NCBI GenBank assembly: GCA_045124505.1
Contig: JBGVLZ010000039.1
Coordinates: 23,110 to 87,109, forward strand
Length of the DNA stretch: 64,000 bases
From: Eubacteriales bacterium
GTDB lineage: Bacteria > Bacillota > Clostridia > Oscillospirales > CAG-272
Direction of reading: 5' to 3'
Shown piece by piece: positions 2,710 through 51,789 of the stretch (the first letter of the stretch is position 1; the number at the start of each line of letters is the position of its first letter). The position numbers and the translations under genes were made by a program. Under the pieces are notes generated by a model that worked only from the letters and a program-made list of their open reading frames with translations, was not told the DNA's origin and did no database searches.

Positions 2710-2736
2710 CAAGACTGACTCATTGAGTCAGTCTTG
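2710..2736 (-). terminator. terminator of the seven-gene transport operon
   Basis: CAAGACTGACTCA-T-TGAGTCAGTCTTG perfect hairpin. On the minus strand it is followed by a T-rich tract (GATTTTTATTT). Confidence 0.8.
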
Positions 2737-2762
2737 AAATTATCAGTTTGAGTACACCGTTA

Positions 2763-3815
2763 TTAGCCTGTGATACCGGAACGCTCAATACCCTGAATAA
2801 GGTATCTCTGGCAGAACAAGAACAGGATAACAAGCGGGAGGATTATCATAAGTCCGCAAGTATTTCTTATCGCAGCATTATAAAGGTTTGATGCAGCGAA
2901 TGTAATATCAAGCGACTTAGGAATTGCGACAATACTCTTCATCATATAAATATCCGTCTTTGTGAAGAACAAGCCTGTGTAGAAGCTGTCTGTCCACTGC
3001 CATGAGAACGCAAAGAGGAATATTGTGATCATCATAGGCACGGAAAGCGGAATAATAATCTGGAAGAATGTACGCATAACACCTGAACCGTCAACGTATG
3101 CGGATTCCTCAAGCTCATCAGGAACGCCCTTGTAGAACTGTCTCATCATAAAGATGTAAAGACCGTTCTTAAATGCAAAACCTGTGAGTGAAAGGAGTAT
3201 AAGCGGTGTGAACTGGTTTGTAAGATTGAAATATGTTACGCCGCCTGTAATATTCAAGCCCTTGAAGACACCGCCGCCGAGCAAATTCATGATGCCGAGA
3301 ACGTCAAAGTATCTGAACTTCATAAACATAGCGAGCTGGAGCGTCTGGTGAGGAACGACCATCGAGAATATAACGAGCGCAAACAACAGACCGTTGCCCT
3401 TAAATTTAAACTTAGCAAAACCGTAACCGATTATAGAGCATATAAACGTCTGGAATACTGCACATGACAACGAAAGGAGCGTTGTATTGAGCAGTGCTTT
3501 AAGATAATGGTTCTCAAGAACTATGTACTTATACTGGTCAAACGTAGGATATTTAGGTATCAATTTAACCGTTGCATCGACAAAGTCATCGGGTGACATA
3601 AACGAAGAAGCGATCTTTGCAAAGAAGGGGAAAAGTATAACATAAGATATACCGATAAGCAAAACGTATCGGAACAATGCCCAAACAACCTTTTTGAGGA
3701 AGTAAAGTGAAAGGTACTTTGCCTTCATTCTCTGCCAGAACGGGGTTCTGTCGAAATCAACCTTTACAGTGTCTTTTGCTTTTCTTTTTGTTTTTACACT
3801 TGCATCAGCATTCAT
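2763..3815 (-). CDS. carbohydrate ABC transporter permease (MalG-like), second pair
   Basis: Multi-TM with EAA loop ESAYVDGSGVMRTFFQIIIPLSVP. Confidence 0.85.
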   Translation of the reverse strand: MNADASVKTKRKAKDTVKVDFDRTPFWQRMKAKYLSLYFLKKVVWALFRYVLLIGISYVILFPFFAKIASSFMSPDDFVDATVKLIPKYPTFDQYKYIVLENHYLKALLNTTLLSLSCAVFQTFICSIIGYGFAKFKFKGNGLLFALVIFSMVVPHQTLQLAMFMKFRYFDVLGIMNLLGGGVFKGLNITGGVTYFNLTNQFTPLILLSLTGFAFKNGLYIFMMRQFYKGVPDELEESAYVDGSGVMRTFFQIIIPLSVPMMITIFLFAFSWQWTDSFYTGLFFTKTDIYMMKSIVAIPKSLDITFAASNLYNAAIRNTCGLMIILPLVILFLFCQRYLIQGIERSGITG

Positions 3816-3829
3816 TTACATACACCCCC

Positions 3830-4804
3830 TTAATCTCTTCTCTGGTAGAATACGTACATTGACAGGATACCGACCACAGCGGCGATTATCGCAATTACTA
3901 TCAAGAAGTACATCCAAGCCATCGCTGACGAAAGAACGTCACCGTCTGTCTTGCTGTATACCTGATCGATATAAGCCATAACCGTGTTTGTGGAAGATGT
4001 GAATGCGTCAATGATCGTATAAACTGCATTTGTCAGAATCATCGGGCTTATCATCGGGAAGGTGATCTTCCAGAATGTTTCCCAAGCAGATGCACCTTCG
4101 ATTTCACAAGACTCATAAATAGCGGGTGAAATTGACTGCAAACCTGCAAGGAATATAAGCATCTGAACACCGGAACGATTGACAATGTTATAAATGTTGT
4201 TGATAGCACCGATAACATATTCAACAAGCTCCGTACCGACTTTCATACTTGAGAACAAGTACTTAAAGTCCATTGCGGAAACGATTTCCGAAACACCCGT
4301 GCTCTGTGCACCTGTGCTGATACCTTCATCGGTATTCTGCATGTAGGAAAGCAATTCGTTACCTGTGTCGATCTTTGCAACCAAACCTGTTGACAAGACA
4401 ACGGGGACGAAGAAAATTGCACGGAAAGCTGCACGGCCGACCATCTTCTGGTTAAGAAGAACAGCCATAAACAGCGAGAATATTACTATACAGGGAATGT
4501 CAAGGAACAACTGCTTGACACCTGTTGTAAGCACCTGAACGTATGTTGTATCAACGAACAGTGCGTTACGGTAGTTTTCAAGACCGACAAACATCAACTG
4601 ATATCCGTCAGCGCCGTGTTTGATATTTGTAAAGCTATACAGAATGGAGTCATAAATGATCGGCAAGTACATTGCCACAAGACCGATTATAAACGGAAGT
4701 ACGAATATATAACCTGCTCTTGCCTTTTTCTTATCAAGCGAAGCAATACGGCGTTTTTTCTTGGGAGCCGCAGTTGCAAGCTTTTCATTTGCAGTATTAT
4801 TCAT
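3830..4804 (-). CDS. sugar ABC transporter permease (MalF-like), second pair
   Basis: Multi-TM with EAA loop ESCEIEGASAWETFWKITFPMISP. Its start overlaps the stop of the upstream gene. Confidence 0.85.
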   Translation of the reverse strand: MNNTANEKLATAAPKKKRRIASLDKKKARAGYIFVLPFIIGLVAMYLPIIYDSILYSFTNIKHGADGYQLMFVGLENYRNALFVDTTYVQVLTTGVKQLFLDIPCIVIFSLFMAVLLNQKMVGRAAFRAIFFVPVVLSTGLVAKIDTGNELLSYMQNTDEGISTGAQSTGVSEIVSAMDFKYLFSSMKVGTELVEYVIGAINNIYNIVNRSGVQMLIFLAGLQSISPAIYESCEIEGASAWETFWKITFPMISPMILTNAVYTIIDAFTSSTNTVMAYIDQVYSKTDGDVLSSAMAWMYFLIVIAIIAAVVGILSMYVFYQRRD

Positions 4805-7800
4805 CAGCCTTCTCCTCCTTCTGTGTATGTGTGGAAGCCGAGAGCTTCGATTTCAACACCGTCAACGGAAACTTTGAAGTTGTTGTAGTTAAGTATAAAT
4901 ACCTTACCGCCTTCATAAGTTACCTTTACGATCTTACCGTTGTCGATAAGATTTTCCGCTGCGATCTGCTCTTCGATGGAAAGCTCTTCATCGTCTTCAT
5001 CATCTTCTTCAGCGTCTTCTTCGGGAACATCCTCAACGGGAGCATCTGTTTCAGTTGAATCGCTGTCTACGGGTGCATCGGAATCAACAGGAGCTTCGGA
5101 ATCAGCAGGAACTTCGGAATCGGCAGGAATTTCCGTTTCGGGAATTTCTGTTTCTTCCTTCTTGGATTCTTCTTCTGCACGAAGCTTATCTGCAACTGCC
5201 TGCTGATATTCTTCTTCAGTAAGAACACGTACACCTGTGATAAACTCGTGATCGATAATGAGCTTATCCTGAACATCCTTTATAGCGCCGTTAAGCTTAT
5301 GATAGCTTTCAGCAAGACCTTCAAGCCATGTATCGAAGTTTACAGAATAGTACTTCTGAAGTGTTACGTCTTCCTTCAGTTTGTTCGTGTTCTGATAGCA
5401 AAGCACGAAATACATTGAAGAACCGTTTTCAATCGACTTCAAAAGCTCGTAGTCAAGGTCGCCTGCCATATTGAGAGCAGAACCTGTAAAGTTTACATAT
5501 CCATGAAGAACCATACCCATGAAAGGTATTGCATTACTTGACTTCAGATATTGGCTGGAATCAAGCGGTATATCAAGAATGTAATCTGTATACGGAAGAA
5601 CAAAGGAGTTACCGCCGCTTACCATTACTTTACCGAAATCATTCTGCATCTTTGCAAGCACATCTCTTACAAATTCCTTGCTGTCTTCTCTGTTGTAAGG
5701 ATCGTCCTCGTTAAAGTCTGAGTTAAGATTCGAACCAAGAGTTGAAACAGAAATGCCTGTGGGCTTTGTTTCAAGAAGATCCTTTGACATCTTGTCATAG
5801 AAATATTCAAAAACAGAAGGAGAAATGGGGTTGAAGCCCGTCTTGTAGAATTCCTGGTATGCAGGGTTATATTCACGCTGTGACGGATATCTGCCGTCCA
5901 TTGTCTGAACTGCGTGCTTCTTGTAGTTGAAGCCGTCAAAGAGCGAAACGCTCTGCAAATACGAGAACTCGAATTCAGGATATACACCGATATCCTTTTC
6001 TTCAGCGAATGTCATAAGATCCTTGAATCCGTCTGCACCGCCTACTTTCTTTTCCCACTTAACTTTGTTGGGAACTGTAGATGTAACACCGCCGTTTGCA
6101 TAGCCTGTGAGCTTGAAATTGATATTTGTGATATCCTTTTCAGCCAACATTCCGTACATTGTTTTAACATCATCAAATGTTGTAAGCGGTACTTTTACTT
6201 CTACGGGAATACTCAAAATCTTGTCAGTAGACTTGATAACACCCATTGTTTCGATACAAAGGGGAATATCATCTTTTATGTCTTCAGCTGTGAGTCTTGT
6301 AATAATTCCTTCGCTTTCAAGGTAATCTCTGCAGACATTTACCATACCCATATAAGATGCGGGATAATACTTATAATTATCAACCTTAACATCGGGAATA
6401 AAGAGTGATGATGTGTCAACATTTCCTTCAGCATCGGGAACGAGATTTGAAATGAGGTTCTCTCTGTAACCTTCGGGATCTGCAAGGTAAGCGTTATAAT
6501 CAGCTGCCTTCGCTTCATCTGTAAGCATTGTGTATCTGATTATGTAGCTGCCTGTGTATCTACGCTTGGATGTAACTGTCCACATCGCATTTGCGCCGAC
6601 ACTTGTTGCATCAGCAAGGTTATACGAGTCTGTAGGACGGGGATAGAACGATGTTGCAACAGAGCTGTAATCGTGGAGAACACCGCCGTGGTTTGTAGAA
6701 ATCTCAGCAAGTGCGTCACCTTCAAGAAGGATCGCAAAATATCCTCTGTCTTCCTCGTATGTGGAAGTTTCTGTAACAGACTTTGTGCTGATGAGGTTTC
6801 CGTATGCGTCGATATATTCCATATCTTCGGGATATTCGCCGTCTTTCATTGTGTGAGCGACTTTTCCGTCCTTATCATAGAATACACCGTTTTCGGGGTA
6901 TACGTTAAACCAGCCTTTGTCAGCATTTTCGGAAATATATCTTGTTATTTCCATGCCGTCAGCATAGTAGTACTTGCTGAGCGGAACATTTACTCTGTAT
7001 GTGTTAGATTCGACATAATTTTCAACTACACCGAATACGGGCAAACGCATGGGCTGACGGTGCTGAGGATCATCGGTATGGTATGCAAAGTCCGAACCGT
7101 ACATCTTCGCACTGAGTGAAAGCTGTGTATTAACGTCTTCAAATCTTGTAAGTGTACCGCTTCCGTCAGGAATAAACGTATAACCTTCGTTATCCTTACT
7201 GTTACCTGCACCGAAATAAGGCAGGATAGTAAGCTTCTTCAGCTTATAGTTTGCTTCGTTGAAGCGGATACCGTTTGCCGCAAGTCTTGCGGTAAGTCCC
7301 TGTTCGTCAAGCGTATATTCGATAGAAAGACGGAACAAGGGGGGAGCTGTGTCTGTAACACTGTACTCAACGAGATCGTGGTCTTCGTCAAGCTTTTCGT
7401 ATGTGTATTCAGGGCAGTATTTTTTGATCTGCTCTTCGATCCAGTTGAACTCTCTGTCCTTTGTATCGTTGGAAAGTACGTAGATAGCATACTTCTTTGT
7501 GATAGGCCACTGGTTATACATCGCATTAAGTGTTGTCTGTGTAACACCTGCCGCTGTGGGGTCTTTAAGCAAGTAGTAAGCTGTGAACTTATTCAAAAGC
7601 CAGTTGGAAACACCTGCTTCTTTAAGCTTTGCGATAATGTTTGTCTCAAAGCTTTCCTTTGTGATCTGACGCGGAACAAGCTTTCTTGTTTCTGTACGTC
7701 CGATCGCATACTCAACTCTCAAACCGTTCTGAATATTCTTAACGATTATCTGATCGCGGAGAGCCGCTTCCTTGTAGCTGTAATATGTCTGGTTTTTCGA

Positions 7801-8205
7801 ACCGTTTGTAAATTCAACGATTACCTGTGACAGAAGCATTTCCTTTGTATCCGCAGAACCTGTGGTTGAACCGAGGTCATAGGGATTTGAGAAAAGTATC
7901 TGACCTGATCTTCTGTCGCGAACAGCAACTTCGCCTGTTCTTGCGAAAGAATAAAGCTCATAGTTGTTGTTCTGAACACGGAGAGTCATTGATTTGAGTT
8001 TAGCTTCCGGCGATGCATACTCAACTCTTGTATAGTCGATATTACCGGACTCTTCTTCCTGCTCCTCATCTTCCGTGCCTTCGTTTTCGGTCGCACCCGT
8101 CTGTGTATCTTCCTCTTCATCAGCGTAAACTGCGAAAGAAGCTGTAAGTGTACCTACTACCATCATTATAGCAAGGAGCATAGATAAAAGTTTTTTCAAA
8201 GCCAT
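4804..8205 (-). CDS. 1133-aa secreted protein of unknown function, possibly with a glycoside-hydrolase-like core (DUF5696-like by recollection only)
   Basis: Signal peptide MALKKLLSMLLAIMMVVGTLTASFAVYA with no lipobox Cys. Poly-acidic tracts follow the signal peptide and lie near the C-terminus. The long central region has no motif I can assign to a family. Confidence 0.5.
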   Translation of the reverse strand: MALKKLLSMLLAIMMVVGTLTASFAVYADEEEDTQTGATENEGTEDEEQEEESGNIDYTRVEYASPEAKLKSMTLRVQNNNYELYSFARTGEVAVRDRRSGQILFSNPYDLGSTTGSADTKEMLLSQVIVEFTNGSKNQTYYSYKEAALRDQIIVKNIQNGLRVEYAIGRTETRKLVPRQITKESFETNIIAKLKEAGVSNWLLNKFTAYYLLKDPTAAGVTQTTLNAMYNQWPITKKYAIYVLSNDTKDREFNWIEEQIKKYCPEYTYEKLDEDHDLVEYSVTDTAPPLFRLSIEYTLDEQGLTARLAANGIRFNEANYKLKKLTILPYFGAGNSKDNEGYTFIPDGSGTLTRFEDVNTQLSLSAKMYGSDFAYHTDDPQHRQPMRLPVFGVVENYVESNTYRVNVPLSKYYYADGMEITRYISENADKGWFNVYPENGVFYDKDGKVAHTMKDGEYPEDMEYIDAYGNLISTKSVTETSTYEEDRGYFAILLEGDALAEISTNHGGVLHDYSSVATSFYPRPTDSYNLADATSVGANAMWTVTSKRRYTGSYIIRYTMLTDEAKAADYNAYLADPEGYRENLISNLVPDAEGNVDTSSLFIPDVKVDNYKYYPASYMGMVNVCRDYLESEGIITRLTAEDIKDDIPLCIETMGVIKSTDKILSIPVEVKVPLTTFDDVKTMYGMLAEKDITNINFKLTGYANGGVTSTVPNKVKWEKKVGGADGFKDLMTFAEEKDIGVYPEFEFSYLQSVSLFDGFNYKKHAVQTMDGRYPSQREYNPAYQEFYKTGFNPISPSVFEYFYDKMSKDLLETKPTGISVSTLGSNLNSDFNEDDPYNREDSKEFVRDVLAKMQNDFGKVMVSGGNSFVLPYTDYILDIPLDSSQYLKSSNAIPFMGMVLHGYVNFTGSALNMAGDLDYELLKSIENGSSMYFVLCYQNTNKLKEDVTLQKYYSVNFDTWLEGLAESYHKLNGAIKDVQDKLIIDHEFITGVRVLTEEEYQQAVADKLRAEEESKKEETEIPETEIPADSEVPADSEAPVDSDAPVDSDSTETDAPVEDVPEEDAEEDDEDDEELSIEEQIAAENLIDNGKIVKVTYEGGKVFILNYNNFKVSVDGVEIEALGFHTYTEGGEG
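5064..5158 (-). repeat. imperfect tandem repeats encoding an acidic linker
   Basis: Encodes ETEIPETEIPADSEVPADSEAPVDSDAPVDSDS. The nucleotide units resemble GGAATC(A/G)GCAGGAACTTC. Confidence 0.7.
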
Positions 8206-8222
8206 TATAATTTACCTCCTTA

Positions 8223-10373
8223 CTACATTCTGTACGAAATTTCGACCACAATACTCGTAATAAAGCTTATGATCTTTGTCATCAAGCTGGAGAACAACAA
8301 TGCGATAAACATGATTGCCGCCATACCAACTATCGTACTGATACTGATTATAAGGTTCTTTCCGAGTGAATAGTCATGTGTTATCATCGAGCCGAAGAAT
8401 ATAAGCAAGCCTACCCAGATCCACATGATGGATGTGAGAAGTGTTATGATCTGCGATTCGTTGAGTGTGAATATGTTTGTCAAAAGTGTTGCGGGTATCA
8501 TCAACAGCGGGATAGGTGCAAGTGCATAGGATGATGCAATAAAGATATCCTTGAAGCTTCCTTCACCTTCAAACAGTGTTGTAAGACACCAGTTTGCAAG
8601 ACACCACAGGAAAAGCGGAACGAGAATTGAAATGATCTGACCGAACACGCTTATGTATTCGCCCTGCGGGTTGAAAAGATATGCAGAACCGATACCGTTA
8701 TAAGTAAATGCTACTATCGCCAATACGATGTATACAATAGCACCTCTTACCGAGCCTCGTCTTTCATACTTCAGATCCCAGAAGCCGTCAAACGGGTGCA
8801 TTATTACATGCATACCGTAAAGAACTTCTTCCCAGAATGTTCTTGAGCCGTCAGGTCTCGTCGCAACCTCTTTGTTCTTACGTCCTGCATAACCGAAGAA
8901 GTAGTATATAGCTACTGCTATGATTACAACAACTATCGGAACAACAAGTGCGTATTTTGCAACCCATTCCTGTCTGTAATACTTGAATGCTGTTGAATAG
9001 TTTTCTGTATCGTATGCAAACTTGTACATATCCATAGCATCTTCGTATTTACCGTCACGGTAATACGCTCTGCCAAGTCCTACATAAGCTGCATCGAAGT
9101 TATTGTTACGTTTAAGAATTTCAAGCCAGTCAGCTTCAGCTTCGTCGTAACGGCGTTCACGCTGATTCTTGATAGCGTTGATAAGTGTGTCACCGTAATC
9201 GGTACGCTTCATAACTGTGATATTGTCAGCAGTTTTGTCGAGAAGCAGCATATCATCGCCCATATATGTGATAGCCTGAATACTCTGAAGGTTTCCAAGC
9301 TGTGTACCCTGGTCACCGAATACGAAAAGCAAACGTCCTTCTTCATCGTATGTGAATACTTTGTTTCTCTTTTCGTCGATAATGCTCCATGTGCCTTCCG
9401 GACCGAGTGCAACGTCAATGATCTTTGACGGACCCATGATGGAAGTTGAGCTTGTTGAAGTAGTTTCATCATGTACTTCTACTTCACCTGACGGAGGCCA
9501 GAAGCCGTTACGGTCAAGGATCTCGTCACCGGCAGTGTTAAGCTTCTTTACAGGAGCGTAGTCACCGGATTTGTCCTTACCCTTAATTGCATTCTGCTGT
9601 GCGCCTTCATCAATTGACGATGTGGTAACGTAGATAAGACCCATATCGTCGATTGTGATATTGTTATACTCTGTTGATACGACTGTATCTGAGTATTTTC
9701 TCTGTTCTTCTGTCTGGAACTTTCTCCAGAAGATCTCCCAAGCACTGAGGGAGGATTTCTGTGCACCGATAAAGCCCTGGAAGTTACCTTCCTTGTTGAT
9801 TGCAATAATACCTCTGTATGTAGTCGATGAAACGATGTACATACGGCCTGCGGCATCAACTGCAAGCGCAACGGGACGGTAAAGGTCATCAACGCTGATT
9901 TCCTTTGAAACGGGCTTGCCGATTATCTCAAGGAATTTACCTTCCTTGTCAAATACAACAATACGGCTGTTGTCAGTATCGGCAACATAAATTTTTTCAT
10001 CTGTAACAAACACACCGTTAGGGTTTGTAAGTGCATCCTTTATGCCGTGTTCGTTTACAAATTCATCGATTATAAATCTCTGCTTAAAACGGTTGTTAAG
10101 AACAACTATTCTGTGATTTGTAGCATCTGCGATATAAACATTGTTATCAGCATCTACTGTGATATCCTTGGGGTCGTCTATATCAACGACAAGTCCCATT
10201 GAATCGCTGTCGACGATCTCCGACGGAACGTATGCGTCAGGAGAATTCATCGGGTGTCCTTCAAGTGAATAGGTATATGTCTGATAAGAATAATATGCGG
10301 ACGCCGTGATAGGCGAAAGAACCGTAAGTACACCTATAAGGACAGCAAGTGTTCTGAAAAGTATTTTTTTCAT
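8223..10373 (-). CDS. exported NHL-repeat beta-propeller / TPR / C-terminal Yip1-type multi-pass membrane protein
   Basis: Signal peptide. NHL-like blades (NNVYIADATNHRIVVLN, KIYVADTDNSRIVVFD, GRMYIVSS...). TPR-like AAYVGLGRAYYRDGKYEDAMDMY. About 5 C-terminal TM helices. Confidence 0.7.
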   Translation of the reverse strand: MKKILFRTLAVLIGVLTVLSPITASAYYSYQTYTYSLEGHPMNSPDAYVPSEIVDSDSMGLVVDIDDPKDITVDADNNVYIADATNHRIVVLNNRFKQRFIIDEFVNEHGIKDALTNPNGVFVTDEKIYVADTDNSRIVVFDKEGKFLEIIGKPVSKEISVDDLYRPVALAVDAAGRMYIVSSTTYRGIIAINKEGNFQGFIGAQKSSLSAWEIFWRKFQTEEQRKYSDTVVSTEYNNITIDDMGLIYVTTSSIDEGAQQNAIKGKDKSGDYAPVKKLNTAGDEILDRNGFWPPSGEVEVHDETTSTSSTSIMGPSKIIDVALGPEGTWSIIDEKRNKVFTYDEEGRLLFVFGDQGTQLGNLQSIQAITYMGDDMLLLDKTADNITVMKRTDYGDTLINAIKNQRERRYDEAEADWLEILKRNNNFDAAYVGLGRAYYRDGKYEDAMDMYKFAYDTENYSTAFKYYRQEWVAKYALVVPIVVVIIAVAIYYFFGYAGRKNKEVATRPDGSRTFWEEVLYGMHVIMHPFDGFWDLKYERRGSVRGAIVYIVLAIVAFTYNGIGSAYLFNPQGEYISVFGQIISILVPLFLWCLANWCLTTLFEGEGSFKDIFIASSYALAPIPLLMIPATLLTNIFTLNESQIITLLTSIMWIWVGLLIFFGSMITHDYSLGKNLIISISTIVGMAAIMFIALLFSSLMTKIISFITSIVVEISYRM

Positions 10374-10382
10374 ATTTCCTCC

Positions 10383-11258
10383 TTAATCCTTCATACCCGA
10401 TGTACCCATCGTTTCAATAATGTTACTCTGTGTGATGACAAATACCGTAACAGGGACGATCATCATGATAACCATCGCCGCTGTACTTGCGCCGGCACGG
10501 ACGATACCTGCCGACAATATCTGGTTGATAGCGTAGTTGAATGTCTTCCACTGTTCACTCTGAATATAGATAGAAGAACCTGTGTTCCAGAGTCCCTGGA
10601 AGGAGTACACGATAAGTGTAAGCCAAGCGGGCTTAACCATCGGCATCGCTATTGTCCAGAATACCTTAAATTCACCTGCACCGTCAAGACGTGCAGATTC
10701 AAGAACCTGGTCAGATACTGAAGATTCCATAAACTGCTTCATAAGGTAAAGACCGAGAGTTGAGCAGAATGCAGGGATGATTATCGCCAGAATGTTGTCG
10801 ATAAGTCCGAGGAATCTCATTGTGATGAAGTTTGCAACACCCGTGATCGTTGAAACGAACATGAGGGAGAGGACGACCATCTTGAACATACCGTTTCTGC
10901 CGGGGAACGGAATCTTTGCAAGCGCATAAGCTGCCAAAGAACCGAGCGCAAGGTTACCAAACGTACCGCAAACCGTAATAAGAACGGTATTGAATATGTA
11001 ACGTGAGAAAGGAACCCAAGATGTGCTCATCAATTTGAACAGGTCGGAGTAGTTTTTAAGCGTGGGGTTGATAACGTAAAACTTCGGAGGGAATATCCAA
11101 AGCTCATCAAGAGGCTTGAATGACTGCATTACCGCAAAGTACATGGGCAAAAACATCATCGCACCGAGAATGATAAGCATTATTGTGATACCCGCGTCAC
11201 CGCCGGCGGAGCGGTTGAGGACGACTTTATGATTACGAACTCTTAACTTCTTAGCCAT
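10383..11258 (-). CDS. carbohydrate ABC transporter permease (MalG-like), first pair
   Basis: EAA loop ESARLDGAGEFKVFWTIAMPMVKP, 6 TM. Confidence 0.85.
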   Translation of the reverse strand: MAKKLRVRNHKVVLNRSAGGDAGITIMLIILGAMMFLPMYFAVMQSFKPLDELWIFPPKFYVINPTLKNYSDLFKLMSTSWVPFSRYIFNTVLITVCGTFGNLALGSLAAYALAKIPFPGRNGMFKMVVLSLMFVSTITGVANFITMRFLGLIDNILAIIIPAFCSTLGLYLMKQFMESSVSDQVLESARLDGAGEFKVFWTIAMPMVKPAWLTLIVYSFQGLWNTGSSIYIQSEQWKTFNYAINQILSAGIVRAGASTAAMVIMMIVPVTVFVITQSNIIETMGTSGMKD

Positions 11259-11259
11259 A

Positions 11260-12219
11260 TTATTCGCCCACCTTCGAGAGTAATTTCTGAATAAGCATAT
11301 TTGAACCGATCATCATCAAGAACAATATAGTAGCAATTGCCGATGAATAACCTACCTCGAAACGCTGACCGCCGTAGTCTTCAAGGTGGTGCATGATCGT
11401 ATGCGCACAGTAGTCAACAGACGGGAAGCCTGCAAGTGCTGTAACGATACCGCCGAATCCGAATGCGCCCGTGATAGCCATAACGGCACCGAACAAAAGC
11501 TGGGGACGCATTGTAGGAAGTGTGATATACCAAAGTTCCTGCCATCTGTTACGTATACCGTCAATAGCGCCTGCTTCATAAAGGCTGTTATCGATAGTCT
11601 GAAGACCTGCGATAAACGAAAGGAACGTAACACCGAGCGATGTCCAGAGTGCAACTACTATACAAAGAGGCATAACATAATTTACATCCTGGAAGAACTG
11701 TATAGGTTCTGTTCTTAAGTTAAGTGAAATAAGAAGTGCGTTAACGTATCCGTAACGGTCAGAGGAGAAGAAGATCGCAAAGATTGAATACATCGCACCG
11801 GAAATACTCGGAGCGTAGAATATAAGTGTAACAATAGCTCTTACCTTCGGTGAAAGCTCATTGATAAACCACGCAACGAAAAGTGACATGATGTACGATA
11901 CAGGACCTGTAACGATAGCGAATATAAGTGTATTCTTAACCGCTGTAAGGAATATATCGTCATCAAGGAATAATCTTAAGTAGTTGTCAAAACCCAACCA
12001 TTTAGGCCATTCAAGCAAGTTGAAGGACGTAAAGCTGAGTACCAGCGACAAAAGAACGGGAACAACAGTGAATATAAAGAACAGAATGAAGAACGGAGCG
12101 ATCATTACATAGCCCATCTTGTGCTTCTTCATTTCTTTCCATGTCCACTGCAATTTCGACATATCTTTACGTGATACAGGCTTCACTTTGTCGGTTTTAA
12201 CTGCCGTATTTTGTGACAT
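11260..12219 (-). CDS. sugar ABC transporter permease (MalF-like), first pair
   Basis: EAA loop EAGAIDGIRNRWQELWYITLPTMRP, multi-TM. Confidence 0.85.
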   Translation of the reverse strand: MSQNTAVKTDKVKPVSRKDMSKLQWTWKEMKKHKMGYVMIAPFFILFFIFTVVPVLLSLVLSFTSFNLLEWPKWLGFDNYLRLFLDDDIFLTAVKNTLIFAIVTGPVSYIMSLFVAWFINELSPKVRAIVTLIFYAPSISGAMYSIFAIFFSSDRYGYVNALLISLNLRTEPIQFFQDVNYVMPLCIVVALWTSLGVTFLSFIAGLQTIDNSLYEAGAIDGIRNRWQELWYITLPTMRPQLLFGAVMAITGAFGFGGIVTALAGFPSVDYCAHTIMHHLEDYGGQRFEVGYSSAIATILFLMMIGSNMLIQKLLSKVGE

Positions 12220-12276
12220 GTGTGTACTCTCCTATATTAAAATTATATAATGAATATCTTTTTTCTATTATATCAT

Positions 12277-12310
12277 CACAGCGCCGAGCCGCCAAAGGCT
12301 CGGCGGTGTG
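12277..12310 (-). other. intercistronic stem-loop after the binding-protein gene
   Basis: 14-bp stem CACAGCGCCGAGCC / GGCTCGGCGGTGTG (1 mismatch). No U-run follows on the transcribed strand, so it is more likely an mRNA-stabilising or processing hairpin than a full terminator. Confidence 0.6.
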
Positions 12311-12318
12311 ACAACGGT

Positions 12319-15300
12319 TTATTCATTTCCGTATACATCCTCGTATATCGGCAGACCGAATTCCTGTCTCTTTCTTGAAAGCTCGCTGTTGATATTAACA
12401 ACATTGTCAAGAAGTGCGTCAACGGGATCAGTACCGTTGTTGTAAGCATCAAGGAATGCAAAGTCAACGTAACGTGTTATGATGTAACCGCCGGGATATT
12501 CAGGAGTACCTTTAAGGTTCTGGAACTGTGCCTCAAGGTTCTTCATTTCGGAAGATGTCCAAGGCATACTTCTGAGCGCTTCCATGTTAGCTGTGTTGTA
12601 TTTAGCAGCCATACCGATGAGCGCTTCGTACTGTCTTGCATATTCGCTCTGTGCAGGAGCATCTGTCCACCACTTGATGAATTCCCATGCATCGTTTCTT
12701 ACCTTTTCGGATCTGTTTTCGTCAGCCATAAGGATAACTGCAGAAACGGAACAAGGAACGGAGTTATTAAGCTCACCTGTTTCGGGATCTATTGTACCGG
12801 GAAGCGGAACAAATTCCCACAAGCCCTTGATTTCAGTAGCATAGATCGAGAAGTGGTTGTATGTAAGATAATCCGCAACAGCGATGGGCATTTCACCCAT
12901 TCTGAAGTAAGTTGCAAGGTCAAATACTCTGGGGAAGTTATACGATGTGAACAAGTCACAAAGCTTCTTGAAGCAGTCGAGTGAGGTATTGGAGTCAATA
13001 TTGATCCTCATACCGTTGTCCTTGTAAAGGTCTTCATCAAGCTGATACATGAATATCTGAAGACCGCCAAGGCTGGATGCCATACCGACATCACGGTAGT
13101 TTGTCTGAAGGTCGGGAACGATCTCATAAAGGTCATCCCATGTTCTCGGAACTTCAATGTCAAGCTCTGCAAAGATGTCCTTACGGTAGAACATCATAAC
13201 GAAGCCAAGACGCTCCGGAACACCGTAATAGTCATAGTAGTGGGGATCGTTTTCATCCGTAATTTCAGGGTTCTGAAGTCTCAGACCTACAAGAGTTTCG
13301 GGATTGAAACGGTTTGTATTGCCTACATAGTCGAAGTAATCTTCAAACTGTGACAAAGGCTCAATAGCGCTACGTATCGCATAGTTGATAACGTCGGACT
13401 GACCTGTTGCCAAGGAGATATCGGGACCTGTTCCTGCAAGTGTTGCGGGAAGGAGCGTACCGCCTGCAACGAGCTTAAGGTTAACTGTTACGGGACAATC
13501 CTTGTCAACAAGCTCACGCATAACCTGCGCTTCATCACGGCTCGTTGCGATCCATACTTCAACAACGTTTTCTTCGTCGATCTTTTCGGATGCACCGAGT
13601 GAGTTATAGTCTGTGAAGAAGCTCTGGAAGAATGAGCTTATTTCGAACCAAAGGCTCTGCCAGAAGCTTGCATTTGCTTCAGGAACTTCTGCATCAGCAG
13701 CCTGAATGAGCAAATAGTCAAGTGTAAGGGGCTGGAGCTTCGTGTTCATTATCCATGTACCGAGCGTACCGGAGTTAACCTTGAGGTTTTCAAGGTTCTT
13801 CGCTATCTCGTCTTCATCGGTACACATCTTATTAAGGATAAATATAATCTTTTCAAGTGTCGCTATGTTCTCTGCGGACTTACCTTCAGAGATCTCAAGG
13901 AACATATCAACGATCGACTGAAGCTCATCTCTTGTCTTCTGCATGAGAATGATAGTGTCGTATATCTGTTCTGCGAAACCGTAGTCCATATTTTCGTCAG
14001 GTGTAGGACCTGTAATTCTCAATATGGAGTTATATATTTCGTTCATGTTTGTCAGTGATGTTTCGCAGCGGCGAAGCGCATCTGACAAATTACCGTAAAC
14101 TACTTCGAGTCGGATTGTGTACTCTTTGCCTGCCTCAAGGTAGAACTTAAACTCTTCCTCGCCGTTATTGAGGGGAGCTGTTACCCAGTCGTCGGCATAG
14201 TTAAACTGCAAGTAACTTGCTTCTTCAAACGGTAATTCACCGTTGATGAATATACGTCTTGAAACGTAAAGACCTGCCAATGTATTCTGCAGGAAACGGG
14301 GGATAATGTTGTAAAGACCCGACTGTGTTATTGCAGATGCGGGAATCGTCCATTCTATCCACTGTCCTATGTTCTGCCATTTGCTTCCGCCGATAGTATT
14401 AAGCTTCTGCTTTGCAGGGTCCTGCGGTTCTGTTATAGGCGAAGTTCTGTCATTGAGTGCGTATATTGTAAGATCGGAAGCGTAAATAGGATATTCAGCC
14501 TGGATCTTATACGCAGCTGACTTATCTACTGCGGGAAGATCTGCATACTGTGCAATATACTTCTCGTATGAAATAAGTGTTTCCGCTTTTTCCACTGTGA
14601 TATCGTAAAGATACATATCGTTCATCGTAGCTTCGAAAGCAATTGTGTGTTCACCTGCTTCAAATACAAACTTGAACGGATCTATGTGGAAGCCTGCGGA
14701 ATCGCAAAGACTGTATTCGCTCCACATATACGCCTGCTGCTTCTCGGGCTTCTTGTCGTTGCCGTTGAAGTCAAGCTTGAATGCGGGAAGTCCGTTTTCA
14801 TCCTGCTCGGTGTAAACATCCTTGAACGCACGTGTCATTTCAAAATAGTTGGCTTCCTTGAAGGGAACCTTGCCGTCTATTCTGAATACACGCTCAATAG
14901 TCGAGGTGTTTGCAGAACCGGAATCGTTTTCAACGGGTCTGTAAGTAAGCTTAACTGTGTAATAGCCGGTAGTAGGAATGGATATCTTCCACGAAACCGT
15001 ACCTGTCTGCGGAACGTAAAGGACATCGCCCTTTTTGCCGTCAGGGTCAGTTACGACCTTCGCAATATCTTCCTCCTTGCCGTATTCCTCATCCTTTGCG
15101 AAAGTGAAGCCTTCTGCCGCCTTAACGGTTACAGAACCATCACCGTCGGTAATTCCGAGGTTGTTGTTCTCCTGAAGATAGTCATAATACGTCTGTGCAT
15201 CAAGCAGCTCACGCACTTCTTCGATACTTGTCGTAGTCGATGTGCCTTCAGCGGCATTGATACCCACGGGCGATATGGCCGTCAACAGGGCGAGAAAAAC

Positions 15301-15333
15301 AATCAAAGCTCTTGACAATTTTGATTTTCTCAT
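12319..15333 (-). CDS. giant (~1004 aa) extracellular solute-binding protein with two N-terminal beta-sandwich-like modules
   Basis: Start reassigned to MRKSKLSRALIV (SD GGAGGAATACCC-ATG). Signal peptide has no lipobox Cys. An internally repeated module is visible (RVFRIDGKVPFKEANYF versus RRIFINGELPFEEASYL). The C-terminal half resembles family-1 sugar-binding proteins. Confidence 0.75.
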   Translation of the reverse strand: MRKSKLSRALIVFLALLTAISPVGINAAEGTSTTTSIEEVRELLDAQTYYDYLQENNNLGITDGDGSVTVKAAEGFTFAKDEEYGKEEDIAKVVTDPDGKKGDVLYVPQTGTVSWKISIPTTGYYTVKLTYRPVENDSGSANTSTIERVFRIDGKVPFKEANYFEMTRAFKDVYTEQDENGLPAFKLDFNGNDKKPEKQQAYMWSEYSLCDSAGFHIDPFKFVFEAGEHTIAFEATMNDMYLYDITVEKAETLISYEKYIAQYADLPAVDKSAAYKIQAEYPIYASDLTIYALNDRTSPITEPQDPAKQKLNTIGGSKWQNIGQWIEWTIPASAITQSGLYNIIPRFLQNTLAGLYVSRRIFINGELPFEEASYLQFNYADDWVTAPLNNGEEEFKFYLEAGKEYTIRLEVVYGNLSDALRRCETSLTNMNEIYNSILRITGPTPDENMDYGFAEQIYDTIILMQKTRDELQSIVDMFLEISEGKSAENIATLEKIIFILNKMCTDEDEIAKNLENLKVNSGTLGTWIMNTKLQPLTLDYLLIQAADAEVPEANASFWQSLWFEISSFFQSFFTDYNSLGASEKIDEENVVEVWIATSRDEAQVMRELVDKDCPVTVNLKLVAGGTLLPATLAGTGPDISLATGQSDVINYAIRSAIEPLSQFEDYFDYVGNTNRFNPETLVGLRLQNPEITDENDPHYYDYYGVPERLGFVMMFYRKDIFAELDIEVPRTWDDLYEIVPDLQTNYRDVGMASSLGGLQIFMYQLDEDLYKDNGMRINIDSNTSLDCFKKLCDLFTSYNFPRVFDLATYFRMGEMPIAVADYLTYNHFSIYATEIKGLWEFVPLPGTIDPETGELNNSVPCSVSAVILMADENRSEKVRNDAWEFIKWWTDAPAQSEYARQYEALIGMAAKYNTANMEALRSMPWTSSEMKNLEAQFQNLKGTPEYPGGYIITRYVDFAFLDAYNNGTDPVDALLDNVVNINSELSRKRQEFGLPIYEDVYGNE

Positions 15334-15446
15334 GGGTATTCCTCCTGTGAAATTTAACTGAAAACAAGTAAAAACTTGCAGGTATAAACAAAAAACCGAC
15401 ACAATCCGAGCGATTCTCCATTTAACCGATTTCATATTTATAAATA

Positions 15447-15475
15447 ATAATAACACATCTTTGCACCGTTGTCAA
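15447..15475 (-). promoter_or_regulatory. sigma-70-type promoter of the seven-gene operon
   Basis: Minus strand TTGACA (15470-15475), 17 nt, TATTAT (15447-15452). Confidence 0.6.
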
Positions 15476-22414: not shown

Positions 22415-23785
22415 TTATTTCTTTTTTGTAGCGGCAACAACGATCGCTGACAGTGCAAAGAGTGCGATGACGTTGGGGATTACCATAAGGTTGTTGAACA
22501 TATCCGCAAGCTCCCAAACGAGATCATTTGAAAGGATCGAGCCGAGGAATATAAACACAATAGCAATTATTGAATATATAAGAACGGGAAGCTTTTTGCC
22601 GAAAAGCGATTCAACATTGAGCTTTCCGAAGAAGTTCCAGCTCAAAATAGTAGAAAAAGCAAAGAAAAGCAAGCAAACAGCAACGAAAATACCGCCGAGG
22701 TTTTCACCGAAAACTGTAGCAAATGCATTCTGCATAAGGTTTGCCTTTGTAAAGCCGTCCTCGCTTCCGTCAGCCAAGGGGCCTCCGTTTGCATAGAGTG
22801 TGGATATAACAACGAGTGCTGTCATTGTAAGAACAACGAATGTATCTATAAACACACCTATCATAGCAACAACACCCTGATCGTGAGGCTTTTCAACATT
22901 TGCCATTGCGTGTGCGTGAGGTGTTGAACCCATACCTGCTTCATTGGAGAAAAGACCTCTCTTTGCGCCCTGGCTTATTGCCGCTTTAAGCGCCGCACCG
23001 ATACCGCCGCCGAGGATAGCCTGCGGAACAAACGCATACTTGAATATCATTCCGAATGCTTCGGGCACATTTTTGATGTTAACACCGAGAACGATAAGAC
23101 CGAGTACGATGTAAAGCACAGCCATTATAGGAACGATCTTTTCAGTAACCGATGCAATACGCTGTATACCGCCGATGAAAATGAATGCGGATACAAGCAC
23201 AAGTGCAATACCGATAGCCCATGTAGGAACGCCGAAAGCGTTGTTGCAGGACTCTGCAATAGAATTTGACTGTACCATTGTACCCATAAAGCCGAGTGCG
23301 AGGATAAGTGTAACGGAGAAGATTCCCGAAAGAACCTTGCCGAATTTACCCTTGAATGCTTCTCTTATGTAGTAAACAGGACCGCCCGAAATACTGCCGT
23401 CAGCATTTTCAACACGTGTCTTCTGTGCCAGAACCGCTTCGGCATATATCGTTGCCATACCGAAGAATGCAATTACCCACATCCAGAATATAGCACCGGG
23501 ACCGCCTACGAGGATAGCACCGCACGCACCGACAATGTTACCTGTACCGACCTGTGCGGCAATAGCTGTGGAAAGAGCCTGGAACGATGAAAGACCGCCC
23601 TTTTGCTTTCCGCCCTTCATAGAGAAGTTACCGAAAACCTTTTTCATACCTTCGCCAAAGCAGCGAACCTGAACAAATCTTGTCTTGATCGTATAGAAAA
23701 GACCTATACTGACAAGTAAAACGATAAGAATGTAGTCAGACATATATGCATTTATAGTCTGAACAACTTTTAAAACTGCGTCCAT
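22415..23785 (-). CDS. alanine/glycine:cation symporter (AGCS family)
   Basis: Multi-TM with FQALSTAIAAQVGTGNIVG, typical of AGCS. Start set to MDAVLKVV (SD AGGAGGG). Confidence 0.85.
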   Translation of the reverse strand: MDAVLKVVQTINAYMSDYILIVLLVSIGLFYTIKTRFVQVRCFGEGMKKVFGNFSMKGGKQKGGLSSFQALSTAIAAQVGTGNIVGACGAILVGGPGAIFWMWVIAFFGMATIYAEAVLAQKTRVENADGSISGGPVYYIREAFKGKFGKVLSGIFSVTLILALGFMGTMVQSNSIAESCNNAFGVPTWAIGIALVLVSAFIFIGGIQRIASVTEKIVPIMAVLYIVLGLIVLGVNIKNVPEAFGMIFKYAFVPQAILGGGIGAALKAAISQGAKRGLFSNEAGMGSTPHAHAMANVEKPHDQGVVAMIGVFIDTFVVLTMTALVVISTLYANGGPLADGSEDGFTKANLMQNAFATVFGENLGGIFVAVCLLFFAFSTILSWNFFGKLNVESLFGKKLPVLIYSIIAIVFIFLGSILSNDLVWELADMFNNLMVIPNVIALFALSAIVVAATKKK

Positions 23786-23801
23786 AAAAACGCCCTCCTG
23801 T

Positions 23802-23835
23802 AAAAAAAATAAAAAAATCCGCTGAAAGATAGCGG
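23802..23835 (-). terminator. glycine-riboswitch expression-platform terminator
   Basis: Minus strand CCGCTATCTTTCAGCGG followed by a long U-run. Confidence 0.65.
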
Positions 23836-23867
23836 AGAACAAAGAAATATACCAGACATATACGATT

Positions 23868-23995
23868 TAATGCCTGCCCTGTCCTTTTGCCTGAGAGATT
23901 CGGCTGTAGCCTTGCACCTTCGGCACCCGCACGGCTTGCGGGATTCTCCAGAGCCTCCTCCGCCTTCGGTTTGCAAAATCCCAAAGGTTTCAACG
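23868..23995 (-). promoter_or_regulatory. glycine riboswitch (one complete aptamer plus a partial upstream aptamer-like segment)
   Basis: Minus strand reads CUCUGGAGAAUCCCGCAAGCCGUGCGGGUGCCGAAGGUGCAAGGCUACAGCCGAAUCUCUCAGGCAAAAGGACAGGG. This matches the conserved GGAGA...CCGAAGG.GCAA...CUCAGGCAAAAGGAC signature. A second ACCGAAGG lies upstream. Confidence 0.8.
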
Positions 23996-24176: not shown

Positions 24177-24434
24177 ATGGAAACAAGAGTTGCGCTTATA
24201 AGCATAATAGTTGAAAAATTCGATTCGGCAGAGGAAATAAACTCACTTCTTCACAAATACGGCGAATACATTATCGGCAGAATGGGACTTCCCTACCGTA
24301 AGAAAAATATAAGCATTATAAGCGTTGCAGTTGATGCACCTCAGGATATTATATCAGCACTTGCAGGAAAGATAGGAAAGCTTGACGGGGTAAGCGTCAA
24401 AACGGTTTATTCGGGGGTTCACGATGGTATTTAA
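24177..24434 (+). CDS. TM1266-family small ACT-like regulator of the iron-only hydrogenase system
   Basis: 85-aa protein directly preceding and overlapping hydE. The sequence resembles the TM1266 family (by recollection). Confidence 0.6.
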   Translation: METRVALISIIVEKFDSAEEINSLLHKYGEYIIGRMGLPYRKKNISIISVAVDAPQDIISALAGKIGKLDGVSVKTVYSGVHDGI

Positions 24435-25464: not shown

Positions 25465-25514
25465 TTTTATCTAAAGGGGAAGAAATTCTGACCCTAAAGA
25501 AAGGAAAAAATAAA

Positions 25515-26963: not shown

Positions 26964-26972
26964 GAGGTAGTT

Positions 26973-51775: not shown

Positions 51776-51789
51776 TGGAGGGCAGACAA

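Follow-up and report, generated by a model that had tools for sequence, protein, structure and literature searches.

Seven contiguous genes on the minus strand of the 64,000-nucleotide stretch that we analyzed (hereafter the window; positions are counted from its first letter) form an operon. We put at roughly 0.55 the probability that this operon is a self-contained module, fixed in evolution and built from CUT1-type (MalFGK2-like) parts, that captures, trims and imports a carbohydrate from outside the cell. Relatives occur in at least 487 species, and hundreds of gut and soil Firmicutes keep the same seven-gene order. Our literature search returned nothing on the seven-gene cassette, which appears to be unstudied to date.

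Organization of the operon

The seven co-directional open reading frames occupy positions 2763-15333 of the minus strand in the order SBP (solute-binding protein)-F1-G1-NHL/Yip1-DUF5696-F2-G2. Their successive junctions, calculated from the coordinates, measure 99, 1, 9, 17, -1 and 14 nt, the negative value reflecting a 1-nt overlap between the stop of the DUF5696 gene and the start of F2. The initial annotation had placed these genes between one promoter and one terminator, and both signals are present on the minus strand: a sigma-70-type promoter, TTGACA-17-TATTAT with a TG extension (15447-15475), about 110 nt 5′ of the SBP start codon, and an intrinsic terminator with a 13-bp stem, a 3-nt loop and a T-run (2709-2737). 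Note that although the promoter is the best match between positions 2400 and 16000 (11/12), the scan overall showed no enrichment over shuffled sequences (28 found, 29.4 expected), so that it is the position of the promoter, rather than the scan statistics, that supports the call. (A longer, GTG-initiated reading frame of 1045 aa overlaps the promoter; the ATG at 15333, preceded by the ribosome-binding site AGGAGG, is the true start.)

Just 3′ of the SBP stop codon there is a GC-rich 18-bp hairpin that lacks a U-run (12272-12315, minus strand), with a minimum free energy of -34.2 kcal/mol (z = -4.96; 0/200 shuffles were as stable). This hairpin is probably a partial terminator or an mRNA stabilizer; it is found in the nearest relatives and only sporadically elsewhere, and is thus not family-wide. 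Lysine codons in the operon, previously described as AAG-rich, are indeed so, with an AAG fraction of 0.71 as against 0.42 in 33 other genes of the window; the initial annotation took this bias as a hint of high expression.

Two permease pairs and no ATPase

The operon encodes two complete permease pairs, as first noted, and their four EAA loops all read as originally quoted. In the first pair, F1 (MalF/UgpA-type, 319 aa, 11260-12219) carries the loop EAGAIDGIRNRW and G1 (MalG/UgpE-type, 291 aa, 10383-11258) the loop ESARLDGAGEF; in the second, F2 (MalF/UgpA-type, 324 aa, 3830-4804) carries ESCEIEGASAW and G2 (MalG/UgpE-type, 350 aa, 2763-3815) ESAYVDGSGVM. The ATPase-coupling EAA loops are intact in both heterodimers. 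All four permeases match BPD_transp_1, F1 with a score (22.3 bits) that lies under the Pfam cut-off of 26.4. The nearest solved chains are AlgM2, SugB and MalG for G1 and SugB, AlgM2 and MalG for G2, all of them from type I sugar importers. F1 is 57-98% and F2 58-98% identical across related loci. F1 and F2 are 30%, and G1 and G2 29%, identical to each other, so that the two pairs are old paralogues.

Consistent with the initial annotation, there is a single SBP gene, and neither the operon nor its flanks contain an ATPase or regulator gene. Across the window, ABC ATPases are limited to a fusion of the MacB-like type, ABC_tran+FtsX (54208-57324), and a weak match near 61.3 kb. In four Bacilli, the cassette is immediately preceded by a single ATPase gene of the MalK/MsmX type (ABC_tran, OB_MalK and TOBE_2). 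The cassette resembles CUT1 importers (MalEFGK2, LpqY-SugABC, AlgM1M2SS-AlgQ) in its BPD_transp_1 F and G permeases with EAA loops and in the MalE-like fold of its SBP, and it resembles those that share MsmX, MsmK or UgpC in that its ATPase would be encoded apart from the permeases here and, where linked, is of the MalK type (OB_MalK/TOBE_2). It differs from CUT1 importers in that one operon combines two permease heterodimers with only one SBP, and in two conserved extra proteins, NHL-TPR-Yip1 and DUF5696, encoded between the pairs.

A giant solute-binding protein

The SBP (1004 aa, 12319-15333, minus strand) reaches about 2.5 times the size usual in CUT1 importers and carries CBM-like modules and a helical bundle. 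Its predicted structure (pLDDT 80) suggests that a hydrophobic segment (aa 9-27) is followed by two CBM35/6-like beta-sandwiches (aa ~65-250, nt 14584-15141, and aa ~325-412, nt 14098-14361), a helical bundle (aa 416-532, nt 13738-14088) and a C-terminal half with a MalE-like oligosaccharide-binding fold (aa ~537-1004). The last of these contains an SBP_bac_8 match (aa 626-906), and in Foldseek searches the model matched the oligosaccharide SBPs 5ysf and 3uor, with a TM-score over the target of up to 0.78. The proposed duplication within the N-terminal half was upheld by local alignment (score 61 versus 29 +/- 5 for shuffles, z = 6.2), in agreement with the two beta-sandwiches visible in the model; moreover, 16/23 homologues match Golvesin_C and 9/23 match CBM_35. 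None of the seven operon proteins has a cysteine in its first 40 residues. The giant SBP accordingly has no lipobox, as first noted, whereas the ordinary SBPs that adjoin homologous cassettes in other genomes have one.

An NHL-TPR-Yip1 membrane protein

The 716-aa product of the fourth gene (8223-10373, minus strand) matches Yip1 (55 bits), NHL (48 bits) and TPR_16 (24.0 bits, under the Pfam cut-off of 32.7), and its matches in the PDB include NHL propellers. Judged from these matches and from hydropathy, it is a membrane protein in which an outward-facing NHL propeller and TPR are fused to a Yip1 transmembrane domain: a signal peptide, an extracytoplasmic propeller (aa ~40-400), a TPR region (aa ~400-465), a transmembrane segment (aa 475-493), a cytoplasmic HPxDGF motif and the five-segment Yip1 domain (aa 522-716). 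The domains initially assigned to it therefore stand, whereas the count of five transmembrane segments has to be raised by the one at aa 475-493, and the DUF5696 and Yip1 annotations mentioned at first are borne out by domain matches to both. The protein is kept in Bacilli at 27-30% identity, and in some lineages NHL and Yip1 are separate genes. In Bacillus, the Yip1-family protein YknW is the fourth component of the YknXYZ ABC transporter and modulates assembly of the complex (PMC4887032). Like the cassette, YknWXYZ couples a Yip1-domain membrane protein genetically to an ABC transporter, but YknYZ is a MacB-type exporter rather than a type I importer, and YknW lacks the NHL propeller and TPR ectodomain.

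The DUF5696 protein has a predicted glycosidase fold

The 1133-aa protein (4804-8205, minus strand; PF18952, E 3.9e-145) has an N-terminal hydrophobic anchor or signal (aa 6-24), an acidic stretch (aa 28-56), a beta-sandwich region with insertions (aa ~57-610), a (beta/alpha)8 barrel (aa ~615-990, nt 5236-6363), an acidic disordered linker (aa ~1000-1085, nt 4951-5208) and a conserved C-terminal beta module (aa ~1090-1130, nt 4816-4938). The two acidic stretches had been read as tails; they exist but are not tails, the second being an internal linker followed by the conserved module of ~45 aa. Among homologues this linker varies from 0 to ~900 aa, and the family has long, variable, stalk-like inserts of up to ~900 helical residues. 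The original label "secreted" is doubtful, since the N-termini of several homologues resemble signal anchors and one homologue has a lipobox.

Neither sequence nor profile comparison matched the protein to a characterized glycoside hydrolase or a CAZy-type structure. By contrast, its structural model (pLDDT 72.6, pTM 0.68) matched in Foldseek the GH129 enzyme 5opq best (E 8.4e-24, TM-score over the target 0.69), followed by GH101, GH31 and GH36, with E values against GH129 and GH101 ranging from 8e-24 to 1e-9. On this model, the protein would be surface-exposed and adopt a GH129/GH101/GH31-type alpha-glycosidase fold. It shares with GH129 (the Zobellia 3,6-anhydro-D-galactosidase 5opq and Bifidobacterium NagBb, 5wzn) and with GH101 endo-alpha-N-acetylgalactosaminidases a predicted arrangement of N-terminal beta-sandwich, (beta/alpha)8 barrel and C-terminal beta domain. 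It differs from them in being only 9-12% identical, in its large insertions and variable linker, in offering a candidate nucleophile only, and in lying always inside an ABC importer cassette.

A role other than hydrolysis is, in our estimate, improbable. The protein would then be a pseudo-enzyme that has the shape of a GH but no catalytic activity and serves for binding or gating, or else a transglycosylase or phosphorylase, and would pass substrate to the second pair as a stand-in for an SBP. Such a role would suit the placement of the NHL-Yip1 and DUF5696 genes directly before F2-G2, the usual slot of an SBP gene, and the fact that we found no conserved acid/base residue (D882 and E840 vary); moreover, the hydrolases that neighbor the cassette differ widely between lineages, which is awkward for a single specific DUF5696 hydrolase activity. 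Against it, D347, D372, D646, D830, R839, N866, H901 and E926 do not vary even in Butyrivibrio and Paenibacillus, and eight invariant polar residues at 25% identity are a pattern typical of active sites. A stand-in would also amount to a receptor other than an SBP, and we know of no type I ABC importer that has one.

Gene order and neighborhood across Firmicutes

The order SBP-F-G-NHL/Yip1-DUF5696-F-G is found in every related locus that is sufficiently long, which is the case for ~65 of 80 species representatives (33-97% identity), and also in loci L001-L003. It is kept even where the DUF5696 proteins are only ~25-29% identical, as in the cultured bacteria Butyrivibrio fibrisolvens D1, Paenibacillus cellulosilyticus, P. 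mucilaginosus, Neobacillus kokaensis, Cohnella luojiensis and C. thermotolerans, and in loci L090-L092. Thus the NHL-Yip1 and DUF5696 genes are syntenic with the double permease pairs wherever the locus is long enough.

The idea that one receptor feeds both translocons is weakened by these distant lineages. One or two lipoprotein SBPs (450-536 aa) adjoin 5/9 of their cassettes, lipobox-bearing SBPs being found in Butyrivibrio (two), Cohnella luojiensis, C. thermotolerans, Neobacillus and L092, so that the second pair may have its own SBP, elsewhere in this genome. Taken further, the lipobox SBPs, together with the ~30% identity between the pairs that would be expected if their substrates differ, could mean that the operon comprises two independent CUT1 importers (SBP-F1-G1, and F2-G2 with a lipoprotein SBP from elsewhere) that merely lie beside a hydrolase and an accessory membrane protein and do not make up one integrated machine. 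We consider this unlikely: neither the window nor most MAG loci nor two Paenibacillus loci contain the small SBP, and the NHL-Yip1 and DUF5696 genes always lie between the pairs, in Clostridia and Bacilli alike and down to ~25% identity, with no partial version among ~90 loci. Over such a distance, one would expect units that work independently to have come apart.

Of the 82 loci analyzed, at most 12 share any one family of flanking genes, which argues that the cassette is self-contained. Here, as in the close relatives of this genome, the cassette is isolated: its surroundings contain neither a regulator nor an ATPase nor a further glycoside hydrolase. Elsewhere it is accompanied by glycoside hydrolases (GH43, GH26, GH113, GH9, GH2, GH38, GH30, GH35) and adjoined by LacI or a histidine kinase/response regulator pair. 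A role in the cell's own envelope, in which the cassette would serve to recycle or remodel a glycopolymer that is secreted or bound to the wall, and not to obtain glycans from the diet or the host, would account for its setting in the window's clade, among housekeeping genes and without regulator or other hydrolase; the strong, constitutive-looking promoter, the distinct codon usage and stalk-like DUF5696 inserts that could span a thick wall fit as well. Such a role is nonetheless very unlikely given that in Bacilli, Butyrivibrio and the MAG locus L091 the cassette sits in typical plant-glycan utilization loci, with GH26/GH113/GH9, GH43 or GH30/GH35 and LacI or two-component regulators.

A proposed module for glycan capture, trimming and import

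The initial proposal that the operon processes an extracellular polymer gains support from the GH129/GH101-like fold of DUF5696, the CBM35-like modules of the SBP and the hydrolase and sugar-regulator neighbors in Bacilli and Butyrivibrio. Under the reading that we favor, a capture, trimming and import module, a glycan, polymeric or branched, would be held at the cell surface by the CBM-like modules of the SBP and then cleaved or debranched by the DUF5696 enzyme, with D830, just past barrel strand 4 and in a loop modeled with low confidence, as candidate nucleophile. The products would enter through the two translocons, both powered by a dimeric ATPase of the MalK/MsmX type whose gene would lie elsewhere in this genome, and the NHL-TPR-Yip1 protein may organize or stabilize the assembly, much as YknW does for YknXYZ, and might, as first proposed, act as a scaffold that retains the non-lipidated partners. 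The substrate probably differs between lineages.

In the bifidobacterial GNB/LNB route (a surface GH101 enzyme plus an SBP-dependent ABC importer) and in Sus-like systems of Bacteroidetes, a surface glycan binder, an enzyme at the surface and a dedicated transporter are likewise co-encoded, and these are functional analogues of the cassette that follow the same logic. Unlike Sus-like systems, the cassette has no SusC/D homology, and it differs from both in that the order and number of its genes are fixed across Firmicutes classes and in that it includes a Yip1 protein and two translocons. In the cassette, two sugar-import channels are joined to a giant SBP, a propeller protein of the membrane and an enzyme-like protein that had no earlier assignment.

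A seven-gene operon encodes two permease pairs and one giant binding protein

Seven minus-strand ORFs follow one another in tandem between positions 2763 and 15333 of the window. In order, these encode a 1004-aa giant solute-binding protein (SBP; 12319-15333), the first permease pair, F1 (11260-12219) and G1 (10383-11258), a 716-aa NHL/TPR/Yip1 protein (8223-10373), an 1133-aa DUF5696 protein (4804-8205), and the second permease pair, F2 (3830-4804) and G2 (2763-3815), with successive junctions of 99, 1, 9, 17, -1, and 14 nt. The SBP gene starts with the ATG at 15333, ahead of which lies an AGGAGG ribosome-binding site. (Note that a longer SBP ORF with a GTG start extends into the promoter.) Consistent with the initial annotation, the seven co-directional genes lie between a promoter, TTGACA-17(TG)-TATTAT (15475-15447, minus strand), and a terminator that ends the operon and comprises a 13-bp hairpin with a T-run (2737-2709, minus strand). 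The promoter is the top sigma-70-like match of the region, at 11/12, in a scan that overall showed no enrichment over shuffled sequences. The leader of about 110 nt has no Rfam match at gathering thresholds, and a regulatory RNA there was rejected on that basis; the only such matches in the window, both outside the leader, are one tRNA and a glycine riboswitch aptamer (23869-23961, minus strand; 62.5 bits) that precedes a gene of the sodium:alanine symporter family (22415-23842).

An 18-bp GC-rich hairpin lacking a U-run is found within the operon, immediately 3' of the SBP stop codon (12272-12315, minus strand; minimum free energy -34.2 kcal/mol, z = -4.96), and may raise the amount of SBP mRNA relative to that of the downstream genes. 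The hairpin occurs in the nearest relatives (L004 and L005) and here and there in further loci (L001, L033, L036, L052, and L067); because most loci do not have it, it is not a conserved feature of the family. The Lys codons of the operon are indeed AAG-rich, as had been noted, with an AAG fraction of 0.71 versus 0.42 in 33 other genes of the window; the window lacks ribosomal or other reference genes by which this fraction could be related to expression. An operon-like fraction (0.75-0.78) is also seen in the genes for a NifU-like protein and, following it, a GGGtGRT-family protein (E 1e-192) at 51074-52788 (plus strand).

The operon is flanked by genes of unrelated function, encoding a Vut_1 transporter (of the vitamin/queuosine-precursor transporter family), an SDR, a PEMT-like protein, a GNAT protein, and a DEAD helicase. 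The segment 2556-2678 (minus strand), which lies after the operon terminator and before the Vut_1 gene that follows, carries a promoter-like TTGCAA-16-TATAAT along with another terminator-like hairpin (2576-2556); it has no Rfam family match at gathering score and could be a leader or attenuator. Elsewhere in the window, a HydF GTPase gene and two radical SAM genes, of which one encodes a BATS domain (24424-28166, plus strand), look like a hydE/hydG/hydF cluster for [FeFe]-hydrogenase maturation, which fits a strict anaerobe.

The permeases are of the importer type and the binding protein is MalE-like

All four permeases match BPD_transp_1 (PF00528), F1 at 22.3 bits and thus below the 26.4-bit cut-off. 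They are UgpA/UgpE/MalF/MalG-like, their nearest solved relatives are SugB, AlgM2, and MalG, and their four EAA coupling loops read exactly as first quoted. The giant SBP matches SBP_bac_8 (42.5 bits; cut-off 27) in its C-terminal half only. In a structural model of the protein (pLDDT 80), two beta-sandwich modules and a four-helix bundle (aa 416-532) accompany a MalE-like domain, whose structural matches are proteins that bind oligosaccharides (sophoro-oligosaccharide, cycloisomalto-oligosaccharide, manno-oligosaccharide, and maltodextrin). By these matches and that to SBP_bac_8, the protein is an extracytoplasmic SBP of the cluster-B (MalE-like) type. Its two N-terminal modules, proposed earlier to be copies of one another, are related in sequence (z = 6.2 versus shuffles), and among 23 homologues Golvesin_C is found in 16 and CBM_35 in 9. 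Among the components are importer-type membrane domains with coupling loops and an SBP whose oligosaccharide-type fold is extended by CBM-like modules.

None of the seven operon proteins has a Cys within its first 40 residues, and hence none has a lipobox (L-x-x-C), in keeping with what had been said of the exported giants. A lipobox is likewise missing from every giant SBP examined, and the four ordinary SBPs that we checked beside the cassette in other genomes (loci L084, L087, and L088) do, namely LTAC, ITAC, AAGC, and ISGC.

Gene order is conserved across distant lineages

When one genome for each GTDB species was scanned with a DUF5696 profile, relatives were identified in at least 487 species. 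Among the best 80 of these, searched by tblastn with the seven window proteins, the co-directional order SBP-F1-G1-YIP-DUF-F2-G2 is present in every sufficiently long locus, and it persists where the SBP is 33% and DUF5696 40% identical to the window proteins; beyond the nearest relatives of the window, the permeases are 52-87% identical. The 80 genomes are MAGs of uncultured Clostridia, Eubacteriales, and Oscillospiraceae that come, for the most part, from the guts of ruminants and other animals, and one "Eubacteriales bacterium" MAG (L004) is near-identical to the window (93-100% protein identity). The same order is kept in nine distant-lineage cassettes, whose DUF5696 proteins, where compared with that of the window, are roughly 25-29% identical to it: those of Butyrivibrio fibrisolvens D1 (plasmid pNP243; L084), Paenibacillus cellulosilyticus (L085), P. 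mucilaginosus (L086), Neobacillus kokaensis (L087), Cohnella luojiensis (L088), C. thermotolerans (L089), and three more loci (L090-L092). No partial cassette was seen among the loci examined, the sole variation being a split of the NHL/Yip1 gene. When 472 flanking ORFs from 82 loci were clustered, no family occurred in more than 12 loci; we therefore rejected the idea of conserved flanking genes and regard the cassette as self-contained.

All seven genes are strictly co-inherited, and the synteny of the two non-transporter genes with the double permease pairs, on which the earlier proposal of a composite machine depended, is retained in every sufficiently long locus. A rival reading is that the operon simply holds two independent importers that are adjacent by chance. 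Small SBPs of 450-536 aa, one or two per locus, do edge five of the nine distant-lineage cassettes (L084, L087, L088, L089, and L092); given the order kept in each of these lineages, we consider this reading unlikely. The small SBPs bear as well on the suggestion that two translocons are fed from one receptor. The window has a single SBP, as that suggestion holds, but the presence of small SBPs beside other cassettes weakens the idea that one receptor necessarily feeds both translocons.

The ATPase is probably encoded elsewhere

The initial annotation of a single SBP with neither an ATPase nor a regulator in the operon can be extended to the whole 64-kb window, in which we found no MalK/MsmX-type ATPase, no regulator, and no second SBP. 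With the MalK-type ATPases of Bacilli as phmmer queries, only a MacB-like fusion of ABC_tran and FtsX and a weak match near 61.3 kb were recovered from the window; with the small SBPs of Bacilli as queries, no SBP was found. (The 1038-aa MacB-like fusion, at 54208-57324 on the plus strand beside a 706-aa radical SAM/SPASM protein at 57387-59507 on the minus strand, is the sole clear ABC ATPase of the window and is not of the MalK type.) In four Bacilli (among Paenibacillus, Neobacillus, and Cohnella), a lone gene for an ATPase with ABC_tran, OB_MalK, and TOBE_2 domains lies directly upstream of the giant SBP gene. That one ATPase gene accompanies two permease pairs there supports the inference that, in the genome studied here, both translocons use a MalK/MsmX-type subunit encoded in trans.

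Other neighbours vary with the lineage: a histidine kinase/response regulator and GH43 in Butyrivibrio; LacI, GH26, GH113, and GH9 in Cohnella; GH2, GH38, and sugar oxidoreductases in Neobacillus; and LacI, GH30, and GH35 at a MAG locus (L091). These neighbours place the cassette in carbohydrate utilisation, and they suggest that the substrate differs between lineages. Given neighbours of this kind, we judge it very unlikely that the cassette instead turns over an envelope glycopolymer of the cell itself.

The DUF5696 protein is predicted to have a glycoside hydrolase fold

The 1133-aa protein scores 485 bits with DUF5696 (PF18952; cut-off 25.6, E 3.9e-145), and the family comprises 5,558 representatives of 50%-identity clusters at E <= 1e-3, or 3,003 if E <= 1e-30 is required. 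By sequence, the protein matched no characterised glycoside hydrolase, a match that would have spoken against the earlier proposal; in Pfam, even at E <= 10, 22 DUF5696 members gave no glycoside hydrolase family and nothing relevant. Against PDB sequences, phmmer with the single sequence found no chain at E <= 1, and a profile search found nothing relevant at E <= 10. In contrast to these searches, to which the relationship is invisible, an AlphaFold2 model built from a 22-sequence alignment (pLDDT 72.6, pTM 0.68) gave Foldseek matches to the GH129 3,6-anhydro-D-galactosidase of Zobellia (5opq; E 8.4e-24, TM-score over target 0.69), the GH129 alpha-N-acetylgalactosaminidase NagBb of Bifidobacterium (5wzn; E ~1e-15 to 1.7e-14), GH101 endo-alpha-GalNAc-ases (E ~1e-11), 2zxq (E 8.9e-11), and GH31 and GH36 enzymes (E ~1e-8). 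As modelled, the protein has the GH129/GH101 fold, with an N-terminal beta-sandwich, a (beta/alpha)8 barrel, and a C-terminal beta domain.

Polar residues invariant between the window protein and those of Butyrivibrio and Paenibacillus are P346-D347-G348, D372, D646, D830, R839, N866, H901-G902, and E926, so that the predicted GH129/101-like fold carries conserved carboxylates. D830, a candidate nucleophile, sits after barrel strand 4, in a loop modelled with low confidence; the alpha-glycosidase barrels of GH31, GH36, GH101, and GH129 have their nucleophile at this position. No invariant acid/base residue was located in the same alignment. A DUF5696 protein that does not hydrolyse glycans and acts as the receptor for permease pair 2 would be compatible with this last result; with an invariant polar set such as active sites usually show, we think it quite unlikely.

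The acidic stretches of the protein, described previously as poly-acidic tails, do exist (aa 28-56 and aa 1000-1085), but they are not tails, because the second is an internal linker followed by a conserved beta module. This linker (4951-5208) is 85 aa long, acidic, and disordered in the window; it is missing in Paenibacillus and Butyrivibrio, and in other Clostridia (L038, L048, L022, L071, and L023) it reaches up to ~900 residues and is helical and coiled-coil-like, with no Pfam domain in the helical or acidic insert. DUF5696 proteins accordingly reach 1993 aa in the studied loci and, across the family at large, 2545 aa. Since its length varies and the last ~45 residues are conserved, the linker is a lineage-specific insertion before the final beta module. 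(Note that in some loci 1-3 kb of additional DNA precedes F2; this is no further gene but a longer DUF5696 ORF with the insert.) The N-terminus has a single hydrophobic segment, which resembles a signal anchor in Paenibacillus and includes a lipobox in P. mucilaginosus, and the term surface-anchored fits the protein better than secreted, the term used at first.

The Yip1 protein may act in assembly of the system

The 716-aa protein matches Yip1 (PF04893; 55.2 bits against 28.6, aa 522-690), NHL (48 bits against 20; the solved NHL propeller 6d69 is matched with E 1.1e-20), and, below the 32.7-bit cut-off, TPR_16 (24.0 bits). The Yip1 core has five hydrophobic segments, in agreement with the five-TM topology assigned initially, but one extra TM (aa 475-493) lies ahead of it. 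The NHL/TPR domain faces outward on the Yip1 membrane domain. Identity of 27-30% is kept into Bacilli, with a HPxDGF motif just N-terminal to the Yip1 helices and several membrane-domain residues invariant, and in four loci (L084, L088, L091, and L092) the NHL and Yip1 parts are two adjacent genes. A precedent for a Yip1 protein that acts with an ABC transporter is YknW, which modulates assembly of YknXYZ (PMC4887032).

We favour, at a probability of roughly 55%, an integrated module in which DUF5696 would cut or debranch a glycan retained at the cell surface, the products would enter through two translocons energised by a shared MsmX-like ATPase, and the Yip1 protein would be an assembly factor or scaffold, by analogy with YknW. 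A bolder form of this proposal, which we regard as doubtful, is that the seven proteins make up one membrane supercomplex, a functional Gram-positive counterpart of Sus-like systems. The Yip1 domain would then join both ABC translocons and the NHL/TPR part would tether the non-lipidated giant SBP and DUF5696, so that polymer might be bound, cut, and channelled into the two importers without diffusion loss, with DUF5696 founding a new glycoside hydrolase family.

Relation to known importers

We group the cassette with CUT1 ABC sugar importers and with Gram-positive loci for glycan utilisation. Like the former, it has pairs of BPD_transp_1 domains with EAA loops and a MalE-like SBP in the operon; a MalK/MsmX-type subunit is absent from both the operon and the 64-kb window. 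It differs in its fixed double translocon, its giant non-lipidated SBP (unusual among Gram-positive SBPs), its Yip1/NHL component, and its GH-like DUF5696 family. RefSeq labels the parts piecemeal, as "DUF5696 domain-containing protein", "YIP1 family protein", and "extracellular solute-binding protein". In PMC and bioRxiv we found no paper on DUF5696 or the cassette gene set, and among the matches listed for GH129 or GH101 with an ABC transporter none was relevant.

Because cultured Paenibacillus, Cohnella, Neobacillus, and Butyrivibrio also carry the cassette, these questions are directly addressable. If the integrated reading is true, DUF5696 would represent a new glycoside hydrolase family, bacterial Yip1 proteins would act in ABC importers, and the cassette would be the first system in which two type I translocons form a fixed pair, providing fibre-degrading gut Firmicutes with a common, unannotated route of carbohydrate acquisition.
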